A stretch of DNA of 64,000 nucleotides from a virus. Shown here in pieces: positions 18,045 through 42,729 of this stretch. Within the stretch, counting starts at the first letter, position 1; every line of letters starts with the position of its first letter. The stretch spans positions 2,858 to 66,857 of IMG/VR virus record IMGVR_UViG_3300031840_000582; one strand, given 5' to 3'. Under the pieces are notes generated by a model. The model made no database searches. It worked only from the letters and a program-made list of their open reading frames with translations, and was not told the origin of the DNA. Position numbers and translations under genes: made by a program.

Positions 18045-18574
18045 TGGTCTGCGGACTTGACATCAGTACGAGCATAACAGGGTATACTCTTATAGATCAA
18101 GATGGCAATGTGGTGTTGAATGGTGCTTGGGATACAAGAAAATATAAAGACTTCTTTGAAAAGGTGATACATGTTAAAGCAGGTTTGGAGCAAATCTACA
18201 GTCAATACGGCAAACAAATTACAGCGATTTATATCGAACAGTCGCTACAATCGTTCCGTTCAGGTTTCTCATCTGCGAAGACTCTCTCAACTTTGTCTCG
18301 TTTTAACGGCATCGTGTCTTGGCTTGTTTTTGATCAATATAAAATTAAGCCAGAATACATCGCGGCTACGTCTGCCAGAAAACTTTGTGGCATCAAAATA
18401 CCGAGGGGCGAAAAGGCAAAACAAGTTGTCTTAAAATTTTTACTTGACAACGAGCCTAGTTTCGTGATAGATTATACTCGTAACGGCAACCCTAAGCCTG
18501 AGTCCTATGATAAAGCAGACTCAATAGTGATTGCCAAAGCGGGGGTTATATGCGAGAGGAAAAGCTTAAAATAA
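18041..18574 (+). CDS. RuvC-like Holliday junction resolvase
   Basis: GLDISTSITG (catalytic Asp), IYIE (Glu) and DKADS (acidic pair) give the RNase H-fold RuvC signature. Confidence 0.8.
   Translation: MMVCGLDISTSITGYTLIDQDGNVVLNGAWDTRKYKDFFEKVIHVKAGLEQIYSQYGKQITAIYIEQSLQSFRSGFSSAKTLSTLSRFNGIVSWLVFDQYKIKPEYIAATSARKLCGIKIPRGEKAKQVVLKFLLDNEPSFVIDYTRNGNPKPESYDKADSIVIAKAGVICERKSLK
18444..18473 (+). promoter_or_regulatory. Putative sigma70-type promoter for primase, inside the resolvase gene
   Basis: TTGACA (18444), 18-nt spacer, TAGATT with an upstream TG (extended -10). Confidence 0.45.
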
Positions 18575-19479
18575 TTAAGAATGTTCTTGGCCGAAGCTAC
18601 AACGCTGGCCACGAGCATCTGTTTCATTGTCCGTTCTGCAAACATCACAAGATGAAGTTGTCTGTGAATGTGGACAAGTCTGCGTTCAAGTGTTGGATCT
18701 GTGATAAGTCAGGTCGTGATCTAGGATACATTGTTCGTAAATTTGGAACACGCCAAGATCGTGACGAATGGTTGAAGTACGAAGACCGAGTGGAGATCAC
18801 CGACTTTGACTTCCTGTTTGCAGAGCCTGAGACGCCCTCTGAGCAGCGCGTCGATCTACCCAAGGACTTGGTTACCCTAACGGGTAGCAAGCCCTCTATG
18901 ACCTCACAGATCGCTTTAAATTACTTGTCTAAGCGTGGCATCACTAAACATGACATCCTCAAGTGGAAGATTGGCTACTGTCCCGATGGAGAATATGGTG
19001 GTCGTATTGTGATTCCATCATTTAACGAAAATGGCTACGCAAATTATTTTGTTGCTCGCTCTTATGGTGACGCTTGGCCAAGATATAAGAACCCGCCTGC
19101 AAGTCGCGATATTATTTTCAATGAATTGTATGTAAATTGGGATGAAGACATAATTATAGTAGAGGGGGTATTTGACGCAATAAAGGCTGGTAATGCTATT
19201 CCTCTTCTTGGATCAACGCTTCGCGAATCTTCTGCTCTTTTTCAGGCCATTGTTAAAAATGGTAACACTGTTTATTTGGCTTTGGACGAAGATGCATCCA
19301 AAAAGACACGCTCTATCGCTCGACTGTTGCTTAAGTACGGAGTAAAAGTTTATGAAATTGATACAAGTGGCGTTGAAGATGTTGGAAGTATGTCTAAAAA
19401 CGAGTTCCAAAGTCGTAAAAACGATGCGGCGATTGTGGAAAAAGATAACTATTTATTGCAAAGGCTTTTTGCGATCTAA
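18550..19479 (+). CDS. DNA primase (DnaG/T4 gp61-like)
   Basis: Zn finger CPFC...CWIC, GRIVIPS...YFVAR...YKNP, and Toprim IVEGVFD...LALDED. Confidence 0.88.
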   Translation: MREEKLKIIKNVLGRSYNAGHEHLFHCPFCKHHKMKLSVNVDKSAFKCWICDKSGRDLGYIVRKFGTRQDRDEWLKYEDRVEITDFDFLFAEPETPSEQRVDLPKDLVTLTGSKPSMTSQIALNYLSKRGITKHDILKWKIGYCPDGEYGGRIVIPSFNENGYANYFVARSYGDAWPRYKNPPASRDIIFNELYVNWDEDIIIVEGVFDAIKAGNAIPLLGSTLRESSALFQAIVKNGNTVYLALDEDASKKTRSIARLLLKYGVKVYEIDTSGVEDVGSMSKNEFQSRKNDAAIVEKDNYLLQRLFAI

Positions 19480-19491
19480 GAGGAACAAGCT

Positions 19492-20769
19492 ATGAGAATT
19501 ATACTAGAGAACTGGAATGAGTTTATTAATGAAGCCAACAAGGAATCAGAAGCCCAGCGCGCCGTCAACAATTTAAAACTAGAGCCTAAGCAAGCTGAAG
19601 CAGCTCTTGCCATGTTGCAGGGCGAAAAGTCTCAACTTGAAGAAGGGGTGATGGATTCAATTAATAGTCTAGTTAAAAGATATGGCAAGCGAGCGATTAT
19701 GGCCGCTCTTGCAGCGTCACTTTCTGCTGGTGCTGTCCTTCCTAAAGATGCCTACGCTTCTGGTGGCGAGTATAATGTTGATACTGATGCGGATGCTGCT
19801 GCTCAAGTAATGGACACTGGGTCAGAGCAGGCCGTGGACGCAGCCGCTGCTCTTGGTTTTGTTAGCACATATGTAGACCTCAAAATCGAAAAAGGAGCAG
19901 ACCGAGTGGATACGAACCTTAAGTTTGCCCCTATCATGGATGCTTTGGCAAAAGCAAAAGGCGGCGATATGTCTGCTTATAAATCTCTTAGTAGCAAAAA
20001 CAAGTCAATGTATGATTTCTTTATGGGTAAAGTAAAAGACATGAAAACAAAAGATGCAAAAGCCTATGATGGATATTCAGCTTTGGGAGCTGGAACAAAA
20101 GTATCACAGAAGGGATTACAGGAGAACACTGCAATGAGACTTACAAAGAAACAGTTAAAACAAATTATTAAAGAAGAGCTTCAAAAAGCTATGAATGAAG
20201 TATCAGAAAAAGAAGTTGTGAAGATGGCCCAGAAGATGGCTCCTAATGCTCCTAGTACGCCTGTTAAGGAAAAAGGACAGGAGGCAATTTCATTGCTCTT
20301 ACAAGATCCAAAGATCCGAAATATTGTTGGTGGCATAGTCGCAGACATAGCAAATAGCGGAGACTCAGAAAATGTCATGTCTGAGGACAAGGAAGGTGGT
20401 AGTGCAGCAGCAAGCCTTCTCTCTCTAGGGACGTTTGGCGCGCCTATGTTATATATGGCCATGGGCTCTCCCGGCTATACTGCTCTTCTAAACTATCTGG
20501 GTGGCGATGCCTTGGCAGCAAACCTTTCTGTTCAGCTTGGCATACCCCTCGCAGCGCTAGCTACTGCGTTAATCGCTGGCATGGGCGCTGCGGCATACAA
20601 AGATATTATGGATCCTAATGTTGACACAATTGTGGGACCATACAACGCAGAAGATTTCTCTGATTTGAAGATACCATACAAGCCTGATGGATCTGCCCCA
20701 ACGCAAGGTATTGGTCGTAACATTTTTGGCGACCCACAGGTACAGCCTCTAAGAACAAGGAAAAAATAA
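19492..20769 (+). CDS. Putative internal head (cargo) protein, apparent fusion of two units
   Basis: Starts MRIILENWNEFINE. Internal in-frame ATG at 20134 with its own SD begins MRLTKKQLKQIIKEEL. Hydrophobic Gly/Ala segments. ACTATTTA at 19448. Confidence 0.5.
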   Translation: MRIILENWNEFINEANKESEAQRAVNNLKLEPKQAEAALAMLQGEKSQLEEGVMDSINSLVKRYGKRAIMAALAASLSAGAVLPKDAYASGGEYNVDTDADAAAQVMDTGSEQAVDAAAALGFVSTYVDLKIEKGADRVDTNLKFAPIMDALAKAKGGDMSAYKSLSSKNKSMYDFFMGKVKDMKTKDAKAYDGYSALGAGTKVSQKGLQENTAMRLTKKQLKQIIKEELQKAMNEVSEKEVVKMAQKMAPNAPSTPVKEKGQEAISLLLQDPKIRNIVGGIVADIANSGDSENVMSEDKEGGSAAASLLSLGTFGAPMLYMAMGSPGYTALLNYLGGDALAANLSVQLGIPLAALATALIAGMGAAAYKDIMDPNVDTIVGPYNAEDFSDLKIPYKPDGSAPTQGIGRNIFGDPQVQPLRTRKK

Positions 20770-20770
20770 A

Positions 20771-21472
20771 ATGAGACTTACCAAATCACATCTAAAGCAA
20801 ATTATTAAAGAAGAATCTCAAGCTGTTTTGGCAGAGAGGTGGGAACTACAACGTCAGCGTTCCATCATGCTTGCTGAGTCAAAACGGATTGATAATTTGC
20901 ACGAGATTAGCCTTTCAGATGTAGCCAGTTTTGCTAAGAATGAGCTTCCTCATCTCGCACTAGATGTGGCCGGTCTAATTCCGGGCTTTGGAGAAGGGGC
21001 CGATTTGGCCAATGCTGGCCTATACATTAGCAAGGGCGAATACTTTATGGCAGCTTTGTCTCTTCTATCAATGATCCCAGCGGTGGGAGATGTTGTAGGA
21101 AAGGGCGGAAAGTTCTTGACAAAGTTTGGCGATGACGCTGGAAAGGCGTCAAAGTATTTGGGTGGGTTACTTAAAAAGTACATGCCACAAATTCAAAAGC
21201 TATTGAAGACACTTAAGGACAACCCAGTTGTCGGGCCTCATGTTGACGACATCCTGCGTGCAGTCACAAAATATATTGACGACGCTGCTGAGGTCGGAGC
21301 GAAGGCAGGCAAAGAAACACTTCAAAGACTCCAGCAGGCGATTCAGACCAGACCAGTTAAGCCGATTGAAGGTGGTACTTTGAAGAAATTAGCTGTTCGC
21401 ACAAAGGCAAGAAAAGATCGCGAGAAAGCGGCCTCGGCACTTCAAGGCAGAGAACAGGAGGCAGCAGAGTGA
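20771..21472 (+). CDS. IIKEE-leader protein with a pre-toxin TG-like domain
   Basis: MRLTKSHLKQIIKEE leader. HLALDVAGLIPGFGEGADLANAGLYISKGEYFMAALSLLSMIPAVGD resembles the PT-TG pattern of polymorphic toxins. Confidence 0.6.
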   Translation: MRLTKSHLKQIIKEESQAVLAERWELQRQRSIMLAESKRIDNLHEISLSDVASFAKNELPHLALDVAGLIPGFGEGADLANAGLYISKGEYFMAALSLLSMIPAVGDVVGKGGKFLTKFGDDAGKASKYLGGLLKKYMPQIQKLLKTLKDNPVVGPHVDDILRAVTKYIDDAAEVGAKAGKETLQRLQQAIQTRPVKPIEGGTLKKLAVRTKARKDREKAASALQGREQEAAE

Positions 21473-21744
21473 TTCTTAATGAACAAACACTCAAGCGAAT
21501 CATAAAAGAAGAGCTAGTAACTGTTCAGTTACGGCTGTTACAAGAGAACCCTGCATTGCTAACCAAGTTTGTACCTATGATTCAAAAGCTTGCACCGCAA
21601 ATTCAAGATCTTGGCCCTGCGATTGAACAGTATGGTCCCGTGATGACCCAGCTAATTAGCATGGTTAAGGATCTAGATGATGAGAAGTTACAGCAAGTCA
21701 TGAGCCTTGTGGCAAGTGTAGGCCAATTAGGCAAAGACGACTGA
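21469..21744 (+). CDS. Small IIKEE-leader protein
   Basis: MILNEQTLKRIIKEEL...LLQE. GTG start with SD AGGAGG. Confidence 0.55.
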   Translation: MILNEQTLKRIIKEELVTVQLRLLQENPALLTKFVPMIQKLAPQIQDLGPAIEQYGPVMTQLISMVKDLDDEKLQQVMSLVASVGQLGKDD

Positions 21745-21782
21745 TATACAATATAGTTCAGAATACTAAAGGAATAATAAAG

Positions 21783-22127
21783 ATGCAAATTACCAAAGAA
21801 AGGCTCAAACAAATTATTAGAGAAGAAATGGAAGTCACGCTCACCAATGAAGAGGCTGGTGAACTATTTGGCGAAGAAGTACAGCAACAGCTTGACGAAG
21901 TAGATATGTCTTCCATGGTAGACCCACAGCTCATGGAAATCGTCGCAGGCCTTTTCAAGATGGGCGTGAACATTGGTTTACCCTTAGTAATCGCCGCACT
22001 TTCTCGTATGGGATACGAGGGTATCGCATCAGCTTTGTCACAAGAGCCAATGGCACGCAAGGACAAAAATTTCCTTATGAATTACATCCAGCAAGAACTC
22101 GAAGGATATAAAGAATTCGATAAATAA
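21783..22127 (+). CDS. Small IIKEE-leader protein
   Basis: MQITKERLKQIIREEME...LDE followed by a hydrophobic segment. Confidence 0.55.
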   Translation: MQITKERLKQIIREEMEVTLTNEEAGELFGEEVQQQLDEVDMSSMVDPQLMEIVAGLFKMGVNIGLPLVIAALSRMGYEGIASALSQEPMARKDKNFLMNYIQQELEGYKEFDK

Positions 22128-22130
22128 TCC

Positions 22131-22159
22131 TTGACAGCAGAGCTGCTGCGTGTTATAAT
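22131..22159 (+). promoter_or_regulatory. Consensus sigma70 promoter
   Basis: TTGACA-17 nt-TATAAT with extended TGn, directly before the Mre11-Rad50 gene. Confidence 0.85.
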
Positions 22160-22174
22160 ATATTATAAATTCAA

Positions 22175-25100
22175 GTGGGGGTAAACTTGAAGTTTGCACA
22201 TATCGCGGATACACACATCCGCAATTATAAGTATCATAAAGAATATCGAGCTATCTTCGATCAAATTTATGACCGATTGAAAAAAGAGAAAGTTGACTAC
22301 ATTGTACATTGTGGCGACTTAGCACATACAAAAACACAACTTTCTCCTGAATATTTTGATTTGGCTGCATCGTTCCTGAGTAATCTTGCGGACATTGCGC
22401 CTACCTATATCATTCTTGGAAACCATGATGGCAACCTTAAGAACGAGCACAGGCAGGATGCAATTACGCCTATTGCAAAGGCACTAAACCATCCAAATCT
22501 ACATCTCTTGCGAGACGCAGGCGAGACTGTGCTAAGCGATGACTTAGCATTTAATGTTCTATCTGTGTTCGATGAGGAGAATTGGGTCAAGCCATCCAGC
22601 GACGAACGTATCAATATCGCGCTGTATCACGGTTCTGTATCAGGCGTTAAGACTGACACAGGCTGGGTGATGACACATGGCGACCACCCAATCGAAGTCT
22701 TTGAGGGACATGATTATGTGTTCCTTGGAGATATTCACAAAACGAACCAGATCCTTGATGATGAGGGTCGGGTAAGGTATCCGGGCTCCACTGTTCAACA
22801 GAACTTTGGTGAGACAGATGACAAAGGATTCTTGCTGTGGAACATCCAAAGCAAAGATGACTTTACTTGTGACCACATCGTAATTCCGAATCCCAAGCCT
22901 TTTATAACAATAAATCTAACCCCCACCGGGCGCATGCCCAAAGGCTTATCTGTTAAAAAGGGATCGCGTTTACGACTTGTGTCTAACAATAATTTGTCTC
23001 TTGAAGCGATGCGGAAGGCAGTAGATGTCGCAAAACAACGCTTCAAGCCCGATACCATATCGTTTCTTAACCGCGCCGCTGGGGAGCGTGGCAACGTTGA
23101 AGAAATCACCGATAGTATTCATCAGGATGATATGCGTAACCCGCAGATTCAAGAGGAATTAATTCGTGAGTATCTGGTAGACTACCAAGTTACCGAAAGC
23201 TTGATGAAGAAGGTACTAGACCTAAACTCACTATACATCAAGAAAGCCGAAGAAAGCGAAGAAATTTCTAGAAACATTAAGTGGCGTATTGGTGAGCTAC
23301 AATGGGATAATTTGTTTAACTACGGAGACAGCAATCGAATTGACTTTGCTCGTCTGAACGGAACTGTTGGTATCTTTGGAAAGAATTATTCTGGCAAGTC
23401 CAGTATTATTGATAGCTTATTGTATACAATTTTTAATACAACTTCCAAGAACGAGCGTAAGAACGTAAATATTATCAACCAGAACAAAGAAGATGGTTCA
23501 GGCGAAGTGGTCATCAACATTGGTGATGAACAATATTACATCCGACGAAGCTCGTCTAAATACACAAAGCGACTCAAGGGGGTCGAGACTCTTGAAGCAA
23601 AAACCGATCTTGACTTTTTCAAGATTGATGCGAACGGAGAAAAGGTAAGTTTAAATGGACTCACAAGAAACGACACAGACAGAAACATCAGAAAGGTATT
23701 CGGATCCATTGATGACTTTCTACTCACTAGTTTGTCTAGCCAGTTGGATAGTCTTTCCTTTATTAGGGAAGGCAGCACAAAACGGAAGGAAATCTTGGCA
23801 AAGTTTCTCGACTTGGAGATCTTCGAAAAGAAATTCAAACTAGCAAAAGACGATGCTGCTGATATGAAGGGTGCTCTTCGACGCTTGGAAGGCAGGGAGT
23901 ATGACGCCGAGATCGAAGCAGCAGAGCAAGAGCATGCTCAATGTGAAGAGAACCTAGAAGAACAGCAGTCTGTTTGCGAGACTCTCAGAAACGAAATATC
24001 CAAATTAGTTTCTGGCATTGAAGAAGTAGATCGTATGATCGATTCTATCCCAGCGGAAATGATTGATATCGTAAACGTTAAGGCTGAACTAGTGCGTAAG
24101 CGTTCCTTGTTAGAGAGAACACAGAATAGTCTAAAAAATAACAAGACAAATTTACAAGAGAAAGAAGCACTCGTTGAGAAAATTGAAGAGTTTCTAGACA
24201 ACTATGATATTGAAGACTTAATTAAGAAGCAAAGCGATTCAAGCAATCTCTGGAATCGGATCAATGATTTGCGAGCGGAGCTTGAACGAATTGATAAAAA
24301 GGCCTCGTCCCTAAACGACCCTGAGTTTCTAAGAGGTTGTAAGTGTCTTCGTGAAGCAGAGGACGCACTGGCTAAGAAGCCAGAGGTTCAAGAGAAGATC
24401 GATATATTTACCACTGAGCACCGTGCGATGGACCCGGAGGGTGTAGACAAGAAGGTGGAGCAATATAACTCTTTGGTTGCTAAGAAAGACCAAACTCAGA
24501 GAGATATTACCAACACACAATTGCTAATCGCTCAGAATGAAAATTCTATGAGTAGCCTAATCTCTGATATCGAAGCTTTGGAGGAAAAAGAATCTTCTTA
24601 CGAAGATAACAAAGAAGCGATTGAAAACTTAGAAGCTCTGCTGGCACAGAAGCAAGAGAGTGAGTCTGCTCTACAAGACCGTGAAACAAAGCTACAAGCT
24701 TGTGAAAAAGAGATTGTTACCCATCATCGTCTTGTTGGTTCGTTAGAGCAGAAGGTGCTAAATATCAAAGAACAAAAGCAAGAGTACATTGATCTTCGTG
24801 AGCAGTTTGCGGCATATGATCTATACATGCGCTGTATGCACCCTAATGGTATTGCTTATGATGTCATTAAAAAGAAGCTGCCGGTTATCAATCAAGAGAT
24901 TGCGAAGGTTCTCGCCAACCTCACTACCTTTGAGGTTCTTTTTGAAGAAGAGGGAAATAAGCTAGATATCTTTATCAAGCACCCAAGCCATGACCCTCGA
25001 CCGCTATCAATGGCATCTGGGGCAGAGAAAACAATGGCTGCAATGGCGATTCGTTTGGCTTTCCTAGCCGTATCTAATTTACCAACCAGCGATATCATGG

Positions 25101-25285
25101 TTCTGGACGAGCCGGGTACTGCTTTAGATGAAGAACATTTGCAGTCCTTTACGCAGCTTCTTGACATGATTAAGGCACATTTCAAGACCATTTTGCTAAT
25201 CTCGCACCTTGACTCTTTGAAAGATGTTGTAGATTCAACACTTGACATTTCTAAGAAACAAGGTTATGCTTATATAAATCAGTAA
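22175..25285 (+). CDS. Fused Mre11/SbcD nuclease and Rad50/SbcC ATPase (T4 gp47-gp46-like)
   Basis: Phosphoesterase motifs DTH, GDL, GNHD, GDIH. Walker A GKNYSGKSS, long coiled coil, signature ASGAE, Walker B VLDEP, H-loop ISH. Confidence 0.9.
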   Translation: MGVNLKFAHIADTHIRNYKYHKEYRAIFDQIYDRLKKEKVDYIVHCGDLAHTKTQLSPEYFDLAASFLSNLADIAPTYIILGNHDGNLKNEHRQDAITPIAKALNHPNLHLLRDAGETVLSDDLAFNVLSVFDEENWVKPSSDERINIALYHGSVSGVKTDTGWVMTHGDHPIEVFEGHDYVFLGDIHKTNQILDDEGRVRYPGSTVQQNFGETDDKGFLLWNIQSKDDFTCDHIVIPNPKPFITINLTPTGRMPKGLSVKKGSRLRLVSNNNLSLEAMRKAVDVAKQRFKPDTISFLNRAAGERGNVEEITDSIHQDDMRNPQIQEELIREYLVDYQVTESLMKKVLDLNSLYIKKAEESEEISRNIKWRIGELQWDNLFNYGDSNRIDFARLNGTVGIFGKNYSGKSSIIDSLLYTIFNTTSKNERKNVNIINQNKEDGSGEVVINIGDEQYYIRRSSSKYTKRLKGVETLEAKTDLDFFKIDANGEKVSLNGLTRNDTDRNIRKVFGSIDDFLLTSLSSQLDSLSFIREGSTKRKEILAKFLDLEIFEKKFKLAKDDAADMKGALRRLEGREYDAEIEAAEQEHAQCEENLEEQQSVCETLRNEISKLVSGIEEVDRMIDSIPAEMIDIVNVKAELVRKRSLLERTQNSLKNNKTNLQEKEALVEKIEEFLDNYDIEDLIKKQSDSSNLWNRINDLRAELERIDKKASSLNDPEFLRGCKCLREAEDALAKKPEVQEKIDIFTTEHRAMDPEGVDKKVEQYNSLVAKKDQTQRDITNTQLLIAQNENSMSSLISDIEALEEKESSYEDNKEAIENLEALLAQKQESESALQDRETKLQACEKEIVTHHRLVGSLEQKVLNIKEQKQEYIDLREQFAAYDLYMRCMHPNGIAYDVIKKKLPVINQEIAKVLANLTTFEVLFEEEGNKLDIFIKHPSHDPRPLSMASGAEKTMAAMAIRLAFLAVSNLPTSDIMVLDEPGTALDEEHLQSFTQLLDMIKAHFKTILLISHLDSLKDVVDSTLDISKKQGYAYINQ

Positions 25286-28978: not shown

Positions 28979-30949
28979 ATGGCTAGAAACTCAAGAAATA
29001 CTAGAAACCCAAGATCGGAGCTTTTTAAATCTTTAACTAAGCTACTTTCTGGACCAATCGTTAATCGTAGAAGCCAAACAGGCCGTCGCCTCCGTCGCCA
29101 TCAGCTTGACAGGTTTGCCACCCGGTTTGTTTCAGCGAGTGGGCAAGAGTTCAAAAAGAGTAACTATAATTCACTTGGCAACATGCAGCCGTCCTTGGTA
29201 TCAGGCCATAACCGTACAGAGCGGTATGTGGACTTTGATCAGATGGAGTACACACCAGAAATTGCGTCAGCACTAGACATCTATGCTGACGAAATGACTA
29301 CACATTCAGCCTTGCAACCGATGCTCGGCATTAAGTGTTCTAACGAAGAAATTAAAGCTCTACTACACAGTTTATACCACGATGTGCTCAATATCGAGTT
29401 CAACTTGTTTGGGTGGTGCCGCTCCATGTGTAAATACGGAGATTTTTTCCTATATTTAGATGTCGATGACAACGCTGGAATTAGAAGTAGCATCGGGCTA
29501 CCAATTCAAGAAGTTGAAAGGTTGGAGGGCGAAGATCCAACCAACGCTGATTATGTGCAATTTCAATGGAACACTGCTGGCCTAACACTTGAAAACTGGC
29601 AAATGGCACACTTTAGAATCTTGGGCAACGATAAGCATGCCCCATACGGCACATCTGTCTTAGAGTCCTCACGTCGAATCTGGAGGCAGCTAAGTCTTCT
29701 AGAGGACGCAATGATGGCTTACCGTATTGTACGGTCACCAGAGCGTCGTGTGTATTATGTTGACGTCGGCGCGATCCCTCCAAACGAAGTCGAGCAATAC
29801 ATGCAGAAAGTCATGACTCAAATGAAACGCAATTCTATTGTTGACGAAGGCACTGGGCGTGTTGATCTTCGATATAATCCACTTTCTGTTGAAGAAGATA
29901 TCTATATTCCACAAAGAGGCGGCACAAGCTCCAGAGTCGAGACACTACCCGGTGGACAGTTCACTGGTGACATTGACGACGTTAAGTATTTACGAGATAA
30001 ATTATTTGCAGCCCTTAAGATCCCAGCTTCTTATCTATCAAGAGGCGAGGGCTCGGACGAAGATAAGACAACACTTGCTCAAAAAGATATTCGATTCGCC
30101 AGAACAATTCAAAGATTACAGCGTTCTGTTGTATCAGAGCTGGAGAAGATTGGAATCGTCCATCTGTACACATTAGGGTTTCGTGGCGATGATTTAATTA
30201 ACTTTAAGTTGCATCTCAATAACCCATCTAAGATCGCAGAGCTGCAAGAACTTGAGCACTGGGATAAGAAGTTCGCCGTCGCAGGCGCTGCTACAGAAGG
30301 CTTCTTCTCACGCCGCTGGATTTCCGAACATCTATTCAGTATGTCTGATGAAGAATTCTTACGAAACCAGAGAGAGCTATTCTATGATCGTAAGTTTGAT
30401 GCACAGCTAGCAGCGGTTGCAGAGGCTGTAGCAGAAGAGTCCGCTGGTCTTGCAGGGCTTGGTGGTGACGCAGGTGGCGACCTTGGCGGGGATCTAGGGG
30501 GCGATCTTGGAGGAGACCTCGGAGGAGACGAGCCAGCAGCCCCTGAAGCCCCGGCTGACGAACCAGAGGATGTTCTACTAGCAACTCCACCACCGGGCCG
30601 TCGTGAGGATAAGCCAACGCAAAAAAGCTTAGAGCCCCAAGCCAAGGGCAAAGAATACCGTCCGGTCAAAGATAATCGTGATCGCAGACAAGCTGGGGCG
30701 GTGAAACGTCACCGTGCCTCGCAGGCAAACACAAATGTTGGCGATACTAGAAAGATTTTCCCCGGATTTACCGGCACTGGTGGGCTAGGAGAACTATCTA
30801 AAGGGATGTTTGAGGGCGAGGAATCTAGTTATGAGGAAAGGGATTTACTCGAAGAGAAAAAGATTCACAATCTCAATTACGAGGTCACCAGATTAATTGA
30901 AAACTTAGAAAATTCGGAGCTAAAGAAAAATGAAATTCAGACACAATAA
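28979..30949 (+). CDS. Portal protein (T4 gp20-like)
   Basis: LLEDAMMAYRIVRSPERRVYYVDVG, TLPGG, DDVKY...ALKIP, DIRFARTIQRLQ. Confidence 0.95.
   Translation: MARNSRNTRNPRSELFKSLTKLLSGPIVNRRSQTGRRLRRHQLDRFATRFVSASGQEFKKSNYNSLGNMQPSLVSGHNRTERYVDFDQMEYTPEIASALDIYADEMTTHSALQPMLGIKCSNEEIKALLHSLYHDVLNIEFNLFGWCRSMCKYGDFFLYLDVDDNAGIRSSIGLPIQEVERLEGEDPTNADYVQFQWNTAGLTLENWQMAHFRILGNDKHAPYGTSVLESSRRIWRQLSLLEDAMMAYRIVRSPERRVYYVDVGAIPPNEVEQYMQKVMTQMKRNSIVDEGTGRVDLRYNPLSVEEDIYIPQRGGTSSRVETLPGGQFTGDIDDVKYLRDKLFAALKIPASYLSRGEGSDEDKTTLAQKDIRFARTIQRLQRSVVSELEKIGIVHLYTLGFRGDDLINFKLHLNNPSKIAELQELEHWDKKFAVAGAATEGFFSRRWISEHLFSMSDEEFLRNQRELFYDRKFDAQLAAVAEAVAEESAGLAGLGGDAGGDLGGDLGGDLGGDLGGDEPAAPEAPADEPEDVLLATPPPGRREDKPTQKSLEPQAKGKEYRPVKDNRDRRQAGAVKRHRASQANTNVGDTRKIFPGFTGTGGLGELSKGMFEGEESSYEERDLLEEKKIHNLNYEVTRLIENLENSELKKNEIQTQ
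30461..30529 (+). repeat. GGD(L) tetrapeptide repeat x6 in the portal C-terminal tail
   Basis: Translates GGDA GGDL GGDL GGDL GGDL GGD(E), with synonymous codon variation. Confidence 0.8.
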
Positions 30950-32319: not shown

Positions 32320-32628
32320 ATGGAATTACTATGGTTTATGCTCGCTTGCTACGGCTTGACTTATCTTGTCGTGTATGCAAGCATTTTTAATAGAATACGC
32401 CCAAGCAAAGAGTGGCTTGGTGGTTTTGGTAAGTTATTTAATTGTACACTTTGCTTTGGCTTTCATGCTGGATGGTTTTTATTTGCCATAAACGAGTGGA
32501 CGGAACTATTTACTTTTGACTACACCTTAGCAAATTTCCTTATTTGTGGGTGTGTAGGTTCTGGGACATCATATTTTTTATCTATGATTGTAAATGACGA
32601 AGGCCTTCGGGTATCAAAGGAACATTAA
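32320..32628 (+). CDS. Membrane protein with CxxC (DUF1360-like)
   Basis: About three TM segments with LFNCTLCFGFHAGW. Confidence 0.5.
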   Translation: MELLWFMLACYGLTYLVVYASIFNRIRPSKEWLGGFGKLFNCTLCFGFHAGWFLFAINEWTELFTFDYTLANFLICGCVGSGTSYFLSMIVNDEGLRVSKEH

Positions 32629-32630
32629 TA

Positions 32631-33509
32631 ATGAAAATCTCTGAAAGCGAATTAAAACAAATTATTGTCGAATCTATTGAGCAAGAAGGCCTAGATGAGT
32701 CTGTTATGGACGCAATCCGAGGCACCTTCGGTGGTGTTAAGAGGGCAGTATCGGGAACTGGCAAAAGATTTAAAAGTGGCAAGTATGATACCGTAAAAGC
32801 TAGCACGGTCAAAAGATCTCTAGCTGCCCTTGAAAAACTAAAGGCCAGTGCAGCCGATTTTGAAGAGAGTGAAGAATTTAAAGCTGCGCTTGATTCTGCA
32901 ATCCAAAACCTACAAAGCATTAATGTTTCCGAGCCAACCGAGCCAGCCGCAGCGCCAACAGGCTCGGGAGACTCCGCAACAGCAAGACGATCAGCAGCTA
33001 ATGCCGCTGCCCGTGCCGCCCGTGACGCTGCTAGGTCAGGGGCTGCACCTGCAACCCCCGATGCCGGACCTGATGATGTTGACGTTGGAACACCAGAGGC
33101 CCCAGCCAGTGAGAAACCAAAAATCAGCGTTTTCAAAGGCAAGGGTGGCCAAGGTGTGCAATCCCAGATGTCACGAGCCGGTATTAGAGGAAAGGATATG
33201 GGTCGCATTCTAAAGGGCCTTAAATCAGACTTGTCAGCCGCTGGCTTTGATGTGTTGGAGGAAGCCGCTCGTAGAGAGATCTCACTAGAGAAGACTTTGC
33301 AAGCAATTGAGCAGATCGCAGATCCTGAACAAAAGAAGGCGGCAAAAACAATTATTATTAAACTTCTAAAGAAGAATAAAGTCAAGGTTGCTGATGCTCG
33401 ACTTAAGAGAGAAGAAGTTAACGAATCTGTAGAGAACAACCCAAAGGGCGTAATCAGCGAGCAATTGGTAGCGAGATTCGCTCAGATTGCAGGATTAACA
33501 AAGGAGTAA
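32631..33509 (+). CDS. Putative internal head protein
   Basis: MKISESELKQIIVES leader and several [LIV]-x-E sites. C-terminal RFAQIAGL matches the scaffold C-terminus RFQRLAGI. Confidence 0.55.
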   Translation: MKISESELKQIIVESIEQEGLDESVMDAIRGTFGGVKRAVSGTGKRFKSGKYDTVKASTVKRSLAALEKLKASAADFEESEEFKAALDSAIQNLQSINVSEPTEPAAAPTGSGDSATARRSAANAAARAARDAARSGAAPATPDAGPDDVDVGTPEAPASEKPKISVFKGKGGQGVQSQMSRAGIRGKDMGRILKGLKSDLSAAGFDVLEEAARREISLEKTLQAIEQIADPEQKKAAKTIIIKLLKKNKVKVADARLKREEVNESVENNPKGVISEQLVARFAQIAGLTKE

Positions 33510-33566: not shown

Positions 33567-33595
33567 ACGCGGGTAGCGCCCGCGTTAATTTATTT
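33567..33595 (+). terminator. Hairpin, putative terminator or attenuator
   Basis: ACGCGGG-TAGCG-CCCGCGT followed by TAATTTATTT. Confidence 0.5.
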
Positions 33596-33605
33596 GGAGA
33601 TTAAT

Positions 33606-34220
33606 ATGGCAAAACAACTTTTAAGAGAATACTATGCCCTATGTGATGGGGGAGTCTGCCAAGACTTACTGACAGAACAAGAAAAGAAAGACATGTCCGA
33701 GGGCAAAAAGTTCTACATGACAGGCTGTATGCAGAAGTATAATACTCCAAACGGCAATGGTAGAGTCTACTCTAAAAATATTCTCCAGCGTGAAGTTGAG
33801 AACTATTGGAAGCTTGTTAGAGAGCGTAGGGCTCTTGGCGAGCTAGATCATCCTGATGATTCGGTTATCAACCTTAAAAATGCATCTCACCTCGTTATTG
33901 ATATGTGGTGGGATGGCGAAGCTCTAATGGGCAAGGTCGAGATCCTTAACACCCCATCTGGCAAGATTTTGCAACAATTAGCAGAGTCAGGCGTCACGCT
34001 TGGTATTTCATCAAGAGGCCTCGGCTCTGTTCGACAGGAACGAGGCAAAACAATTGTAGAAGACGACTTTCAGCTAATCTGTTTTGACTTTGTTTCGGAA
34101 CCCTCCACCCCCGGTGCTTTCATGCACGTTAAAAAAGGCATGATGGAACACAAGGAGCCAAATATCTTTACAAAGTCAGATAGACTATACAGATCACTAA
34201 ACGACATTTTGAGAGACTAG
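33606..34220 (+). CDS. Prohead maturation protease (T4 gp21-like)
   Basis: NGNGRVY, GELDHP (His), GISSRGLGS (Ser), DFVSEPS (Asp). Confidence 0.95.
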   Translation: MAKQLLREYYALCDGGVCQDLLTEQEKKDMSEGKKFYMTGCMQKYNTPNGNGRVYSKNILQREVENYWKLVRERRALGELDHPDDSVINLKNASHLVIDMWWDGEALMGKVEILNTPSGKILQQLAESGVTLGISSRGLGSVRQERGKTIVEDDFQLICFDFVSEPSTPGAFMHVKKGMMEHKEPNIFTKSDRLYRSLNDILRD

Positions 34221-34226
34221 AGAAAC

Positions 34227-34658
34227 ATGAAACGTTCAGAATTAAAGAAAATGATTATGCCTATTGTAAAGGAGTGTGTTCAAGAGACATTACTTCGTGA
34301 GGGGCTACTATCTAATATTGTATCAGAAGTAGCACAGGGCATGGGTAACCAATTTATTGTTGAGAACAAAGAAGAGTTGGTTCCACAATTATCAAATGAG
34401 AACAGCGTCCAAGCCGACCTAATGGCCGAAAGAAAAACAAAAGAACTAAATGCTTACAAACAAAAATTACTAGACCAGATTGGCAGTGATGCCTATAACG
34501 GTATTGACTTGTTTGAGGGCACAAAACCAGCAGCCCCACAGCAGTCCGTAACACAAGCAGCGAGTCCACTAGGCAACAAAGATCCCAATGATGCCGGTGT
34601 TGATATTTCAGGAATTATGGCTTTAGGTGGAAAAAATTGGAAAGCTTTGATGGGCTAA
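34227..34658 (+). CDS. Hypothetical head protein with a leader-like N-terminus
   Basis: MKRSELKKMIMPIVKECVQETLLRE resembles the IIKEE leader. Confidence 0.5.
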   Translation: MKRSELKKMIMPIVKECVQETLLREGLLSNIVSEVAQGMGNQFIVENKEELVPQLSNENSVQADLMAERKTKELNAYKQKLLDQIGSDAYNGIDLFEGTKPAAPQQSVTQAASPLGNKDPNDAGVDISGIMALGGKNWKALMG

Positions 34659-35877: not shown

Positions 35878-37989
35878 ATGTCCAATCGTAAATTAGTAGG
35901 AACCGAATTTAGAAACGAGTTTCTTAGATCACTTAACGTTCTCGCCCCCCGTATTGCAGCGGCGATTGAAAAGTATGGTGAAGATACCGTTGATGTTATT
36001 AACTTTGCCTCGTCAGGCACGGCCACGCTTAACAATGTAAGCATTACTGGCCTGACGGATATAGTTTCTGATGCTACAACCGAAGATGTGTTGGATATTA
36101 CAGCAGACTCTCTTACGACAGCTAATGTTATCGACATTTCAGCAGATGCCTTAACGACAGGAACTATCCTAAACCTTGTTTCTGATTCATCAGACAATAG
36201 TTCCCGCACTCTTTTGAAAGTTTTAAACGACAATTCAAGTGCAACAGGAACGAGCGCCGCATCGTTTGAGACACATGCAGTTCAAACTTGCGTATCAATC
36301 CACAACGACAATACAGAAACTGATTTTGGACCTATTCTCACTGTAAATAGAAAGTCCTCCACGGTTGCTGATGATATGGGAGTTGGGATAATAAACTTTC
36401 AAGGTCTTACAGATGGTAGCACCTCAACTGGATTCGCTAGGATATCAGCAGAGGCAAGTGATGTATCAGATGCAACACCCAGAGGAAAATTAATTCTTCG
36501 GGCTCAATTAAATATTGATGGCTCTGAACCTAACGCTGTTGAAGAACTTATGTCCTTGGGCGGGGGAACCGGGTCAAACGCACCAGAAGTTGTTATTAAT
36601 GATCTAAGCTATGATGTTGACTTCCGCGTTGAATCAAATGGCGAGACTCACATGCTGTTTGTTGACGGAGGAAACAACCGGGTCAGCATTGGAGACTCCA
36701 CAGACACCCCAGCGGCAACACTAGAAATTTCAAATGCAAGTAATGGCGGCGTTCCGCTTGTCCTACTGGACTCAAACGACACAGACAAAATATGCCTTGA
36801 CATCGATGCAGCCAACATCGACGCAGATGTAATTGATATCGCAGCCGACGCAGTAACTACAGCTTTTGTCATGGATGTTACCGCAGATGGACTTACAACC
36901 GGTGGTATCCTAAACCTTGTTTCGGATTCTTCAGATACAAGCGATAGAACACTTGTCAAAGTTACTAATGATAATACAGGTGCAACTGGCACCACAATTA
37001 TGCATCTTAAGAGCGATGCCGTAACTGATGATAATCCAATTTTGCTTATCGAATCCTCTGCTGCCGACACTGGTCCCGTTCTTGAACTAAGAAATACAAA
37101 CGCTGGTGTCAATCGTGAAGCAATCTTAAAATTTACAAGAAGCGATACATCAGCGGAAGCAGACGACATGGATCTTGGGCGTTTGCAATTTCAAGGTGCT
37201 GACAGTGGCAACAATGATACTATATATGTAGCTATTTTGGCAGAGGCCTCTGATGTCACTGACGGCGATGAGGGAGGCCTATTAAAATTTAGACTGTTCT
37301 CAGGCGGAACAGGAGGCACAGCCTCCTCCAATACGCTATTCTCAATCGGCGGTGAAGACGTTGCAAATTCAACACCTTGTGAAGTTATCGTCAACGAAGA
37401 CGGCATCGACTGCAACTTCCGTGTTGAATCAGATAACAATACCCATATGCTCTTCGTTGATGCGGCTGACGACACCGTAACGGTCGGAGGAGACGTTGCT
37501 CTTCACAAAGATGGTTTCGCTGTTATAAACAATTATCAGGCAACAACTTTTGAAAATACTTTAGCAGACGGGCGATTTGGTAGCGCCGAGATATTAAGAT
37601 ACTCTCCGGGCGCGGATGACACTCTTACAGCAGGGCAATTGTTTTTCTTGCACACAGACGGCACTTGGGACAGCACGGATGCTGATGCAGTTGCCACTGG
37701 CGCAACACAAATGCTTGGTATTGGCCTTGGTGGTTCGTCTCAGACAGTTGGCTGTTTAATTAAAGGATTCATACGAATCCCATCTACAGAAATACTAAAC
37801 CTTCCCGGCTCTGGTGCCTGCGACGGCCTGCCTCTTTATGTTTCAACAACAGCAGGCCACCTAGACTTTACAGCCCCATCTGGAAATGGTGACTTTGTTC
37901 GCACCGTTGGTTACGCAATTGATGATGATGGTGGCGACGTTCTTATTTACTTCAATCCAGATGCAACACATGTGGAGATTACAGCGTAA
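35878..37989 (+). CDS. Fibre/spike-like virion protein with an internal tandem duplication
   Basis: Two copies of ADxLTTGxILNLVSDSS...ADDM...FRVESxxxTHMLFVD. ACTAATTA at 35843. Confidence 0.65.
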   Translation: MSNRKLVGTEFRNEFLRSLNVLAPRIAAAIEKYGEDTVDVINFASSGTATLNNVSITGLTDIVSDATTEDVLDITADSLTTANVIDISADALTTGTILNLVSDSSDNSSRTLLKVLNDNSSATGTSAASFETHAVQTCVSIHNDNTETDFGPILTVNRKSSTVADDMGVGIINFQGLTDGSTSTGFARISAEASDVSDATPRGKLILRAQLNIDGSEPNAVEELMSLGGGTGSNAPEVVINDLSYDVDFRVESNGETHMLFVDGGNNRVSIGDSTDTPAATLEISNASNGGVPLVLLDSNDTDKICLDIDAANIDADVIDIAADAVTTAFVMDVTADGLTTGGILNLVSDSSDTSDRTLVKVTNDNTGATGTTIMHLKSDAVTDDNPILLIESSAADTGPVLELRNTNAGVNREAILKFTRSDTSAEADDMDLGRLQFQGADSGNNDTIYVAILAEASDVTDGDEGGLLKFRLFSGGTGGTASSNTLFSIGGEDVANSTPCEVIVNEDGIDCNFRVESDNNTHMLFVDAADDTVTVGGDVALHKDGFAVINNYQATTFENTLADGRFGSAEILRYSPGADDTLTAGQLFFLHTDGTWDSTDADAVATGATQMLGIGLGGSSQTVGCLIKGFIRIPSTEILNLPGSGACDGLPLYVSTTAGHLDFTAPSGNGDFVRTVGYAIDDDGGDVLIYFNPDATHVEITA

Positions 37990-39366: not shown

Positions 39367-39660
39367 GTGAGCAACAGAAACTATAGAAACCACAGAGGTC
39401 GGGACCATAATCGTAGAGAAAGATATACCCCACCTCATGTAGGCAAGAGGCACAGCAATTTAACAGTCGTGCCGAGACAAAATGAGCCAATCGAAAGAGC
39501 GATTCGCAGATTTATTAAAAAATGTAAGAAGATGAAGATCATCGAAACATACAGAGAAAAGACTGATTATTATGAAAAGCCATCAGTTGTGCGAAGAAAA
39601 AAAGCAATTCGCCGCCAGAGAGCAATTGATAAGGCAAACAAAGCTAACGCAAACAGATAG
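39367..39660 (+). CDS. rpsU: Phage-encoded ribosomal protein bS21 homolog with an Arg-rich N-terminal extension
   Basis: VVPRQNEPIERAIRRFIKKCKK...YYEKPSVVRRKK is the bS21 signature. ACTACTTA at 39330. Confidence 0.85.
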   Translation: MSNRNYRNHRGRDHNRRERYTPPHVGKRHSNLTVVPRQNEPIERAIRRFIKKCKKMKIIETYREKTDYYEKPSVVRRKKAIRRQRAIDKANKANANR

Positions 39661-39747: not shown

Positions 39748-40800
39748 ATGTCAACAATGTTAGAACAAGCTTTAGTAGATGCAACTGCTCTTAGAGAAGC
39801 AGCACTTAAAAACGCAGAGACTGCAATTCTTGAGAGATACGCAGATGACGTGAGAACCACCATGGACTCGCTCTTGGCTGAACAAGAGGATATGGGCGAC
39901 ATGGGAATGGAAATTGCCGACGAAGATCCAGAAGGCGACATTCCAGATGCAGCCACTAGTGATCTTAAGGTGTGTCCAGACGATGATGAAGTAAAGACTT
40001 TTACTTTTTCTCTAAACGACCTCCGCGACACCCTTGATAAGCTAAGTGATGATGAGGCTGGAGAGCCAGAAGATTCAGAAGAGCTTGCTATGGACATGGG
40101 CGCTGAGCCTGAAGAAGAAGAGTTGGAATTGCAAGAAGATCTAGAGTTAGACGAAGAGATGCTATTTGAGTATCCTGAAGGACAAGTTGACGAGCAAGAA
40201 GAAATTACAGAAGACGAGACTGCACTCCCAGAAGGTATCGACCTAGATAAATTGGTTGAGGAAGTTATCGTTGATCTTGCTGGAGATGAACTAACTGGCT
40301 GGGCAGGACGCCCACGATCAGATGTTGACCACGCCAAAGAAATTAGATTAGCACGGGCTGCTTCCACCGAGGCCAAAGAGCAAAATGAAAAGCTCAAGGC
40401 AGCACTCGAAGAACTCGCAGAGTCAAGCAAGGCTGTAGCTAATGAAAACCAACTTCTCAAGCAAACACTTGAGACTATGAAAGAGAAACTTGAAGAAGTC
40501 AATCTTTCAAATGCAAAACTACTTTACATGAATCGGACATTGAATAGTCCCTCCCTGAATGAGCGGCAAAAAACTAAAATTGTCGAATCTATTCAGAATT
40601 CTGATTCAGTTGAAGAAGCGAAGGTAATTTTTGAAACCCTTCAAAGCGCAGTGGGCTCTTCCAAGAAGAAGCCAGAATCACTACGCGAAGCTATCAAGAG
40701 ACCTTCTATTTCCGTGCCTAGTAGAAGAAACAAATCTTCACAACGTGATACGATTGTGAAAGAACGCTTCCAACGCTTGGCTGGAATTTCTAGAAACTGA
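39748..40800 (+). CDS. Prohead scaffold/core protein (T4 gp22-like)
   Basis: Acidic and coiled-coil, immediately before the major capsid gene, many L-x-E sites, C-terminal RFQRLAGI. ACTATTTA at 39698. Confidence 0.75.
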   Translation: MSTMLEQALVDATALREAALKNAETAILERYADDVRTTMDSLLAEQEDMGDMGMEIADEDPEGDIPDAATSDLKVCPDDDEVKTFTFSLNDLRDTLDKLSDDEAGEPEDSEELAMDMGAEPEEEELELQEDLELDEEMLFEYPEGQVDEQEEITEDETALPEGIDLDKLVEEVIVDLAGDELTGWAGRPRSDVDHAKEIRLARAASTEAKEQNEKLKAALEELAESSKAVANENQLLKQTLETMKEKLEEVNLSNAKLLYMNRTLNSPSLNERQKTKIVESIQNSDSVEEAKVIFETLQSAVGSSKKKPESLREAIKRPSISVPSRRNKSSQRDTIVKERFQRLAGISRN

Positions 40801-40842: not shown

Positions 40843-42729
40843 ATGTCAGTATTAGATAAATTAACTGAAGGGATCGTTTCTCGCGATCTCCGACAAGAGG
40901 CAGATGCTCTTCTCTCCAAGTGGGAAAAGACTGGTCTTCTTGAAGGCCTCGACGCCGATAATGAGCGTCAAGGCATGGCACGCTTGCTTGAAAACCAAGC
41001 GGCACAGCTTCTCAAAGAAGCATCCTCAATGGCAGGAGGAAACGTCGAGGGCTTTGCTTCCGTCGCATTCCCACTTGTCCGTCGAGTTTTCGGTGGCCTC
41101 TTGGCTAACGATGTTGTCTCAGTGCAACCAATGAGCCTTCCATCAGGTCTCATTTTCTTCCTTGACTTCACACATAGTACAGAGGGTGTTGGTTCAGGTG
41201 TCCGTGGACAGGGCGCTACCGGCGAGTCAGTGTACGGTGGTGGCAAGGTTGGCTTCCAGATCACTGGTGGTGTTGATCTTGGGTACGAAGGTACTCGTGC
41301 AATTGGCGCAGCCGCTGATGGTAACCCCGGCCTAGACGTTGGGTTCTACAACCTTTCAACTGGATTCTCTGCACCTACTGGTTCAACCGTGCTTGGTGGT
41401 ATCACTGAGATCAAGGCACACGCTATTGGAGCTACTGCTGCTTCCGCGTCTGCTGTTATTGATCTTGCTAGCCCAACCGACGCTCAGAAGAAGGCACTTC
41501 GTTTCGACCCAGACGTTCTAGGTCTTGGCGATGGACACGAGGCAATTTTTGCTCGCGTCAAGCTTTCCGACATTGAGGAAAGTGGACAGCTTCTTAACAA
41601 GCGTATGCTTACAGCAATCTCTTGCTCTGTTGCAGGAACCAGCCTTGATGACCTAATTATGGTTCGTCGTCTTACCACTCTTGGTCAAGATAACGGTTCA
41701 ACGGACTTCAACGCTGCATTGCACCCAACCGAGGCCGGATATGACGGAAGCGAGAACACTGTGTTCTTCGTCTTCGTTGGTACTGATGCCAATGTTATCT
41801 CAACAAACCACCAAGTAGCTGCTGCTCAGGCTGCACCTACAATCCACTTCCCACTTGCGGATAACTTCGGTGGTGCAAGAACCAATGACGGTAACGACTC
41901 TGTTGGTACTGTGATTGCTCAGACTGATTGGGGTCTCGAAAACGAGACAGCGATCCCTGAGATCGACATCAAGGTGGACAGCATTGCTGTTACCGCAGTC
42001 ACTCGTAAGCTCAAGGCTAAGTGGACCCCAGAATTGGGTCAAGACCTCAATGCTTACCACAACCTCGATGCCGAGGTTGAGTTGACCTCAATCCTCTCCG
42101 AGCAAATTGCTCTTGAGATTGATCGTGAGATCCTACAGGATCTTATCAATGGTGCAACTGCTGGTACGCTCTACTGGTCACGTTCACCGGGTCTATTCGT
42201 CAACCGTGAGACTGGTGCTGAAATTGGTGCGTCTTCTGCCGCTCCTGATTTCACAGGTACTGTTTCCGAGTGGTACGAGACCCTCATCGAGACCATCAAT
42301 GATGTGTCTGCTAGAATCCACCGTAAGACTCTACGGGGTGGTGCTAACTTCGTGATTTGTTCACCAGAAGTTGCTTCTATCCTTGAGTTCACCAGCGGAT
42401 TCCGTGCAAGCGTCACTGTTGACTCTGATGCAGGCTCAATCGGTGCTGTTAGAACCGGCTCAATCTCTAAGAAGTTCGACGTGTACGTCGATCCTTACTT
42501 CCCACGGAACGTGATTCTCGTTGGTCGTAAGGGTGGTAGCTTCCTTGAGAGTGGCTTCGTCTACGCTCCATATGTGCCACTACAGGTCACACCTACTATC
42601 TTCGGTGTCGAGGACTTCGTGCCCCGCAAGGGTGTCATGACTCGCTACGCCAAGAAGATGGTCCGTGGTGATATGTACGGTCTAGTTATCTGTCGCGGTC
42701 TTATCGGTGAGGCTGGTGCAACCAGCTAA
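40843..42729 (+). CDS. Major capsid protein (T4 gp23-like)
   Basis: KWEKTGLLEG, PLVRRVF, VSVQPMSLPSGLIFFL, TRKLKAKWTPELGQDL, EIDREIL, YAPYVPL, GVMTRYA. SD AAGGAGGTG. Confidence 0.97.
   Translation: MSVLDKLTEGIVSRDLRQEADALLSKWEKTGLLEGLDADNERQGMARLLENQAAQLLKEASSMAGGNVEGFASVAFPLVRRVFGGLLANDVVSVQPMSLPSGLIFFLDFTHSTEGVGSGVRGQGATGESVYGGGKVGFQITGGVDLGYEGTRAIGAAADGNPGLDVGFYNLSTGFSAPTGSTVLGGITEIKAHAIGATAASASAVIDLASPTDAQKKALRFDPDVLGLGDGHEAIFARVKLSDIEESGQLLNKRMLTAISCSVAGTSLDDLIMVRRLTTLGQDNGSTDFNAALHPTEAGYDGSENTVFFVFVGTDANVISTNHQVAAAQAAPTIHFPLADNFGGARTNDGNDSVGTVIAQTDWGLENETAIPEIDIKVDSIAVTAVTRKLKAKWTPELGQDLNAYHNLDAEVELTSILSEQIALEIDREILQDLINGATAGTLYWSRSPGLFVNRETGAEIGASSAAPDFTGTVSEWYETLIETINDVSARIHRKTLRGGANFVICSPEVASILEFTSGFRASVTVDSDAGSIGAVRTGSISKKFDVYVDPYFPRNVILVGRKGGSFLESGFVYAPYVPLQVTPTIFGVEDFVPRKGVMTRYAKKMVRGDMYGLVICRGLIGEAGATS

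Follow-up and report, generated by a model that had tools for sequence, protein, structure and literature searches.

In bacteriophage T4, the internal proteins IPI, IPII and IPIII, which are unrelated to one another, carry a short N-terminal propeptide that ends in I-x-E, as described in two publications (PMC9026906, PMC3012670). According to the first of these, the T4 protease gp21 cleaves after L/I-X-E; the first 10 residues of IPIII are enough for packaging, with residues 4 and 7 contributing to targeting and residues 8 and 10 to processing; replacement of the leader Glu by Asp abolishes processing and leaves targeting intact; and gp22, gp67 and gp68 are acidic, are cut at several L/I-x-E sites and are largely lost from the head (PMC9026906). 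Here we analyze a 64 kb stretch of viral DNA (64,000 nucleotides (nt), positions 2,858 to 66,857 of the 66,857-nt IMG/VR contig IMGVR_UViG_3300031840_000582, for which CheckV estimates a completeness of 37%; hereafter, the window) that encodes a cluster of otherwise unrelated proteins sharing a short N-terminal leader. As with the T4 internal proteins, one short leader heads unrelated bodies, a gp21-type protease of the S77 family is encoded by the same virus, genes for tagged proteins lie outside the head block, and the spacing of hydrophobic residues and glutamate is the same. Unlike the T4 propeptide, the leader comprises 14-16 residues rather than 10 and differs in sequence; near-complete genomes encode 4-16 tagged open reading frames (ORFs), some with multiple leaders and mostly with acidic bodies, and the system is known from sequence alone.

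Propeptides are also found on the ejection or inner-body proteins of the giant phages phiKZ, 201phi2-1 and SPN3US, where a gp21 homologue that has diverged is reported to cleave them off after x-x-E; they contain several redundant sites and include identical N-termini on paralogues (PMC9026906, PMC5694885). In contrast to the leader described here, those propeptides mostly exceed 100 residues, the motif is S/A-x-E, and hundreds of bodies do not have one short leader in common. A constant trafficking part joined to interchangeable ends is the organization of the Rhs polymorphic toxins as well; in the phage proteins, the constant part is a 16-residue leader. In encapsulins, a short cargo-loading peptide sends varied cargo into a shell of the HK97 fold; these peptides are usually C-terminal, are not removed and are unrelated in sequence to the leader.

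Six-frame translation of the whole contig reveals four copies of the strict motif LK.II[KR]EE, all on the + strand and within 20134-22127 (core L at 20155, 20792, 21490 and 21804), each located 7 residues past a start codon, which is ATG in three cases and GTG in the gene at 21469. A looser pattern adds a copy at 32652, in the gene that starts at 32631 directly upstream of the protease gene, along with one unrelated minus-strand match at 49629. A profile (A1), for which 121 leaders were taken from related contigs, matches five places in the contig, at 21783 (43.6 bits), 20771 (41.0 bits), 20134 (38.0 bits), 32631 (21.7 bits) and 21469 (13.5 bits, core only), and nothing else at E<=1. The claim of the original prediction that unrelated proteins share an N-terminal motif is confirmed by these four strict copies and one looser copy, which are anchored to start codons and recovered by the profile. 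Six instances had been proposed, five of which match the profile; one of these five, at 20134, turns out to be internal to a larger ORF rather than a separate protein, and the sixth, at 34227, is unmatched. The similarity of three copies at the DNA level also stands: all of the copies concerned contain the pattern AA(A/G)CAAATTATTA(A/G)AGAAGA, and 20 nt are common to them.

The tagged cluster opens with a 425-amino acid (aa) two-module ORF (19492..20769, +), which consists of a leader of a second type, a first body, an L-Q-E-N-T-A junction, an internal leader of the first type (MRLTKKQLKQIIKEEL; 20134..20181, +; residue 215) and a second body with a hydrophobic, Gly/Ala-rich stretch. An AGGAG sequence lies 9 nt upstream of the internal leader, which may be an internal start in addition to an internal module. 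Three further genes follow on the + strand: a 233-aa protein with the leader MRLTKSHLKQIIKEES (20771..21472; motif and profile); a 91-aa protein (21469..21744) whose GTG start overlaps the preceding stop and whose leader, VILNEQTLKRIIKEEL, is diverged and matches the profile in the core only; and an acidic 114-aa protein (21783..22127; motif and profile) that begins with MQITKERLKQIIREEM, followed by EVTLTNEEAGELFGE, and whose orthologues close the tagged cluster in relatives. The fifth member belongs to the head module: this 292-aa gene (MKISESELKQIIVESI; 32631..33509, +; motif and profile) lies directly upstream of the protease gene, and relatives have tagged genes in the equivalent place. 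The protease gene is followed by a conserved 143-aa gene with a leader-like N-terminus, MKRSELKKMIMPIVKE (34227..34658, +), and a gene of this type, of about 140 aa, trails the protease in most relatives; it was considered as a sixth member and dropped given that A1 does not match it at E<=1. Searches of the tagged window proteins against Pfam and PHROGs gave nothing above the cut-off other than a match of the 91-aa protein to YqfQ (30.3 bits, with a cut-off of 27), which we take to be compositional.

The consensus of the type-1 leader is M-K-I-T-K-s-Q-L-K-Q-I-I-K-E-E-L, followed by a weaker v-L-x-E. In the alignment of 121 leaders, M1 and E14 are invariant and L8, I12 and E15 are conserved in at least 90% of the rows; within I12-K13-E14, Ile is found in 97% and Glu in 100%. 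Looking for the leader in related sequences, along the lines of a check put forward with the original prediction, did bring out many tagged, variable ORFs. A regular expression identified 233 unique tagged ORFs in related viral contigs (median 111 aa; the count includes a few visible false matches, for example at window position 35418 and in L286). When the first 24 residues were removed, 230 bodies fell into 180 BLASTP clusters, 155 of them singletons, and 97 of 100 representatives (the longest of 148 chosen cluster representatives) matched no Pfam family. In most of the 80 contigs fetched via the primase, between one and six type-1 genes follow shortly downstream of the primase gene. At least 135 stretches in IMG/VR match a degenerate DNA pattern for KQIIKE(E/D); of 100 unique in-frame matches in 80 fetched loci, 70 are preceded by a start codon at a distance of exactly 8 codons, and 11 more carry, by eye, a shorter MKKSEL form. 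Against 1.84 billion representative proteins, a 30-column profile yielded 12,983 matches at E<=0.001 (clusters at 50% identity). A search of a 5.8-billion-protein set with the leader region of the 114-aa protein returned 17 candidates, all orthologues, and is of no use as a census. Full-text searches of the literature for the leader strings retrieved nothing relevant, and a search for the capsid targeting sequence together with cyanophages retrieved a T4 review alone.

The codons of the leader vary where the residues do not: Leu8 is encoded by all six codons, Ile12 by ATC (58), ATT (52) and ATA (6), and Glu15 by GAA (58) and GAG (57). Because synonymous codons vary freely whereas the residues are fixed, selection acts on the peptide, and the possibility that the leader is an RNA or DNA element was rejected by this analysis. 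A Sec-type signal peptide was also dropped, the leader being charged and amphipathic rather than hydrophobic. Upstream of the leader, only a purine run resembling a Shine-Dalgarno sequence is conserved. Together, these observations support the view of the leader as a modular tag that is maintained at the peptide level and joined to bodies with no other relationship. In several unrelated contigs (L207, L211, L212, L227, L234 and L002/L246), the 18 nt before the leader ATG translate in frame to YEWIS(N/D) or a similar string, and in other contigs LTGNTE(T/I)K precedes the leader ATG; such shared stretches may represent an element conserved at the DNA or RNA level, or what was once the end of an upstream unit.

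Many tagged proteins contain more than one leader. Among the best 150 matches in the protein library, 139 have 2-5 leaders, and of 184 internal leader matches (some of which are offset duplicates), 93 begin with Met and 91 do not; the latter cannot all be separate genes. A tripeptide [LIVMF]-x-E ends 0-6 residues before the internal leader in 105 of the 184 cases, compared with 21% at random positions, and the consensus preceding internal copies is hydrophobic-x-E-N-K. The junction of the 425-aa window ORF, ...G-L-Q-E-N-T-A-M-R-L-T-K-K-Q-L-K-Q-I-I-K-E-E, fits this polyprotein pattern. The sole homologue found for this ORF, P0034 (411 aa), is fused too: its first 242 residues are 100% identical to those of the window protein, and the identity then drops to about 65% just past the internal leader, which shows that leaders mark mosaic joints. 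In P0009, a homologue of the 233-aa protein, one more leader-body unit is placed upstream and the internal leader is Met-less; a further Met-less internal leader is found in L004. A separate 335-aa ORF (L003:5596-6600) combines 140 N-terminal residues that look, by eye, like a Nudix domain with an internal type-1 leader and a 190-aa body.

The mosaic joint and the 20 nt common to three window copies could be taken to indicate that there is no shared function and that the N-termini owe their likeness solely to a conserved DNA cassette at which duplication or recombination took place recently. Such a relic is hard to reconcile with free codons, fixed residues and upstream DNA that is not conserved, or with the retention of the tag across contigs whose primases are 45-50% identical and in 12,983 clusters at 50% identity, and we consider this explanation most improbable.

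The type-2 leader, which heads the ORF at 19492 and was missed in the original prediction, differs from type 1. In the window it reads MRIILENWNEFINE, followed by Ala (19492..19533, +). Type-2 N-termini occur about 30 times in the fetched loci, as MKLLFENWRKYLNE or as a longer form MS.SSF..KLIFENWRKFVNE, in genes that either adjoin type-1 genes after the primase or directly follow the protease. Where type 1 has L8, I11, I12 and E14, type 2 has W8, F/Y11, [LIV]12 and E14, with a [LIV]-x-E motif in which E14 is present in at least 90% of the sequences, and the overall pattern W-x-x-F-I-x-E-A can be compared with Y-Q-E-F-I-A-E-A of T4 IPII/IPIII. In five near-complete relatives (172-204 kb), each genome encodes 3-10 leaders of type 1 and 1-6 of type 2, and both types occur in the same clusters.

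Several lines of evidence link the leaders to head maturation. The window encodes a prohead maturation protease of the T4 gp21 type (Peptidase_S77; 33594..34220, +; Pfam PF03420, 106 bits; PHROG 207). In 32 of 80 contigs fetched via the protease, a tagged ORF starts within 1.5 kb of it, and in these loci 48 tagged ORFs lie within that distance and 6 elsewhere. All five large contigs that were found through the leader DNA pattern alone encode an S77 protease, in one case with a tagged gene about 1-2 kb away; the five near-complete relatives have one S77 protease each, which brings the large related contigs with this protease to 10 of 10. In the T4 record, IPII and IPIII begin with MKTYQEFIAE|A, IPI with MKTFKEF...ITE and the scaffold protein gp22 with MLKEQLIAE|A; the protein in the scaffold position of Flavobacterium phage immuto begins with MSNKDLLKQAIAEAK. 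The four most conserved leader positions other than Met, namely L8, I11, I12 and E14, have the spacing of T4 Y4, F7, I8 and E10. Neither the A1 profile nor the type-2 profile discussed below matches T4. Given this, the tie to T4 is one of pattern and context, not of detectable homology, and what the sequences have in common is the spacing aromatic/aliphatic-x-x-hydrophobic-I-x-E. The genes for the core components gp22, gp67 and gp68 flank the T4 protease gene much as the tagged gene at 32631 does here; the T4 core proteins are few and conserved, whereas the bodies described here are hypervariable.

The major capsid protein contains a candidate maturation site, L57-K58-E59 (41011..41019, +; numbered with the Met at 40843 as residue 1), and the next residue is Ala60. 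The E-A pair is invariant among five capsid proteins (window, immuto, Mel-JY01, P-HM2 and T4) at the column of the T4 gp23 sequence L-T-E|A, the gp23 cleavage site. A candidate scaffolding protein, acidic and helical, is encoded directly upstream of the capsid gene (39748..40800, +) and was assigned by position and composition only. When the protease (alignment of 32 rows) and the leader (121 rows) were co-folded, the score was 0.02, which speaks neither for nor against an interaction.

The original prediction also assigned the cluster its own late motif, and a promoter-like sequence, ACTATTTA, is indeed present at 19448..19455 (+), 44 nt upstream of the first tagged ORF and inside the 3' end of the primase gene. 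Its distribution in the window is non-random and strand-specific, with 11 copies on the + strand and none on the - strand; 2.4 would be expected, and 100 shuffles gave no more than 6. The genes at 14018, 17298 (an HNH endonuclease gene), 19492, 34686, 39748 (the scaffold gene, at 50 nt), 42855 and 46375 are preceded by the motif at a distance of 10-76 nt; for 32631, the distance is 126 nt. Relatives contain CTATTTA 267 times on the + strand vs 37 times on the - strand, and it is found within 120 nt upstream of the first gene in 18 of 42 tagged clusters vs a background of 2.6%. The cluster ends at a perfect sigma-70 promoter, TTGACA-17-TATAAT with the TG of an extended -10 element (22131..22159, +; 12/12 matches), which precedes the SbcCD-like gene. 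Because ACTATTTA lies upstream and the sigma-70 promoter directly after, the cluster looks like a unit of its own, under the same element as several structural genes.

The bodies are mostly small and acidic: among the 233 tagged ORFs, 141 are acidic, 52 basic and 40 neutral, a composition that would suit injected effectors and would equally suit a core filler that is degraded. The statement that the bodies are often Gly/Ala-rich and hydrophobic is correct for three window proteins and does not extend to the family, in which 7 of the 233 ORFs, including those three, contain a strongly hydrophobic 19-residue segment. The arrangement of small tagged genes in tandem behind an invariant leader, with four copies about 365 nt apart in L183, is reminiscent of bacteriocins or ribosomally synthesized and post-translationally modified peptides (RiPPs), in which the leader would be an export or maturation signal for variable cores. 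We regard such a role as highly unlikely: the leader does not end in Gly-Gly or a similar sequence, the bodies span 46-366 aa and are mostly acidic, Pfam and PHROGs searches revealed no processing, export or modification genes beside the cluster, and 10 of 10 large contigs are T4-type phages with an S77 protease.

A more serious alternative is that the leader is a docking or oligomerization helix that gathers diverse small proteins at one hub other than the capsid in the infected cell (the replisome, for instance, the transcription apparatus or a site on the membrane) and is kept on the protein. The 3-4 spacing of its hydrophobic residues is typical of coiled coils, the leader is helical in the low-confidence structural model of a tagged protein, three window bodies contain hydrophobic segments, and the window cluster lies between genes for a primase and an SbcCD-like nuclease. 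Under this hypothesis, however, the enrichment on the protease side and the invariant Glu of I-x-E would remain unexplained, as would the [LIVMF]-x-E tripeptides before internal leaders and the Met-less leaders within polyproteins, which seem to need cuts; moreover, strongly hydrophobic bodies are limited to the 7 ORFs mentioned above. A docking helix thus appears rather unlikely.

We conclude that the leader is probably a T4-type prohead-targeting and processing sequence on interchangeable cargo; that the bodies are injected into the host seems about half as likely. The best-supported form of this explanation is an extension of the T4 scheme: there are two types of leader, each genome has many tagged genes, and some products are polyproteins with protease-type sites on the flanks of their units. 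The course of targeting, cleavage, packaging and delivery that we infer is as follows. During head assembly, the amphipathic-helix leader would give diverse proteins affinity for the scaffolding core. The S77 protease would then cut after Glu in [L/I/V]-x-E and take the leader off at I-K-E or I-N-E; in multi-unit ORFs such as 19492-20769, a second cut at [L/I/M/V]-x-E just upstream of the internal leader (L-Q-E|NTA in the window) would free separate bodies within the head. For the 233-aa and 425-aa proteins, the predicted cuts fall after I-N-E14, L-Q-E (ahead of NTA-M215) and I-K-E228, or else at the next L/M-x-E. The freed bodies might stay with the DNA and enter the host, as the T4 internal proteins do, or be degraded as core filler, as gp22, gp67 and gp68 are.

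The modular head-loading tag of the original prediction is thus supported in part, by its modularity at the peptide level, its co-occurrence with the S77 protease, the enrichment on the protease side, the T4-like residue spacing that ends in I-x-E, and the strand-specific promoter-like motif and closing sigma-70 promoter of the cluster. Several observations weigh against it. The type-2 profile (A4) has no match in T4 at E<=1 and so lends no support to homology with the T4 targeting sequence. Directly after the putative I-K-E cut, 97% of the leaders have Glu instead of the Ala of the T4 and capsid sites, and the true leader cut may lie elsewhere. Because all tested contigs belong to one clade, the co-occurrence of leader and protease may reflect shared ancestry alone. 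The tagged cluster is surrounded by replication genes, being placed between the primase gene (18550-19479) and a single 1036-aa ORF that fuses an SbcD/Mre11-like phosphoesterase with an SbcC/Rad50-like ATPase (22175-25285); and given that ACTATTTA also precedes the HNH endonuclease gene, assignment of the cluster to a late class is unproven. The ranking of the 150 best library matches by summed score favours multi-leader proteins, and tblastn searches with the 233-aa, 425-aa, 114-aa and 143-aa window proteins gave no match in cultured phages.

The body of the 233-aa protein, for which 23 homologues were detected in viral metagenomes, provides a connection to toxins. Residues 61-106 (HLALDVAGLIPGFGEGADLANAGLY...LSLLSMIPAVG; 20951..21088, +) form a module of about 46 residues that matches the start of Rhs C-terminal toxin tips in Vibrio vulnificus and in an AHH-nuclease protein from a metagenome (phmmer E 3e-8 among 5.8 billion proteins; pairwise BLASTP E 3e-16 and 9e-17). 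In the bacterial Rhs proteins, the DPxGL site immediately precedes this module, and an Ntox15, AHH or Endonuclease_NS_2 domain comes after it; the phage proteins, in contrast, have no recognisable toxin domain after the module. Pfam has no model that matches the shared module, and at E<=1 all 18 of the 18 phage homologues searched lack both a PT-TG match and a toxin domain. The Atlas lists PT-TG as no more than a weak lead (score 0.83). An AlphaFold2 model of the 233-aa protein (18 rows), which is all helical, is of low confidence (mean predicted local distance difference test score 54). In a relative, a 125-aa type-1-tagged protein (L192:117-491) matches FliG_C (35 bits, cut-off 23.3), and this cargo may, judging by the match, be a flagellar-motor mimic.

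The source of the window is a distant T4-type myophage: almost all genes are on the + strand, and a T4-type portal (PF07230, 260 bits), a large terminase and a gp23-type capsid protein (PF07068, 243 bits) are encoded. Among cultured phages, the capsid and protease are closest to those of Flavobacterium phage immuto (about 48-49% identity) and of Microcystis phage Mel-JY01, with cyanophages next; gp190 of immuto is itself tagged, with the N-terminus MKKSQLRQIIKEAL. The region 19300-22300 recurs almost verbatim, with a fraction of 0.91-0.94 of the words sampled, in 15 metagenome runs (marine or seawater) that belong to 8 studies of 2019-2025; one of these runs is possibly the source sample. Two contigs from another run match the 40-45 nt that encode the leader alone, inside otherwise different sequence. 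Exact pieces of the cluster (151-211 nt) are present in contigs from oligo-dT RNA libraries of two studies; such contigs cannot show transcription, its timing or transcript ends.

The head block has further unusual components. A ribosomal protein S21 gene (39367-39660; PF01165, 51 bits) lies within it, and Mel-JY01 has rpsU at the equivalent position, after the protease. A 703-aa protein (35878-37989) consists of two similar halves, each with ...DA(L/V)TT...ILNLVSDSSD...TL(L/V)KV.NDN..ATGT..., and was assigned to no family by Pfam or PHROGs. The portal has a long charged C-terminal extension past the T4-portal domain, and its C-terminal part includes a GGDL repeat of 4-5 units (30500-30560). 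Between the portal and the protease, a 102-aa hydrophobic protein (MELLWFMLACYGLT...; 32320-32628) is encoded, in the same place as in many relatives.

If the leader is a head-loading tag, sequence alone would suffice to label candidate virion-delivered proteins of uncultured marine phages, in 12,983 clusters at 50% identity, and these candidates would share a class with the T4 anti-restriction protein IPI. A much more tentative proposition is that a globally abundant marine T4-like clade relies on a portable 'loading code' of two words (MKITKsQLKQIIKEEL and MKLLFENWRKYLNE) to pack thousands of fast-evolving proteins, singly or as polyproteins cut in the head by the prohead protease, and injects them along with the DNA as host-takeover and anti-defence effectors, some of which would carry a membrane-crossing module exchanged with Rhs toxins of contractile injection systems. 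Should the leader be a head-loading tag, a polyprotein strategy undescribed for T4 would be in use in these phages, a short tag would become available for packing foreign proteins into phages of hosts other than Escherichia coli, and 'viral dark matter' would become a delimited set of candidates that could be screened for activity in anti-defence or host takeover.

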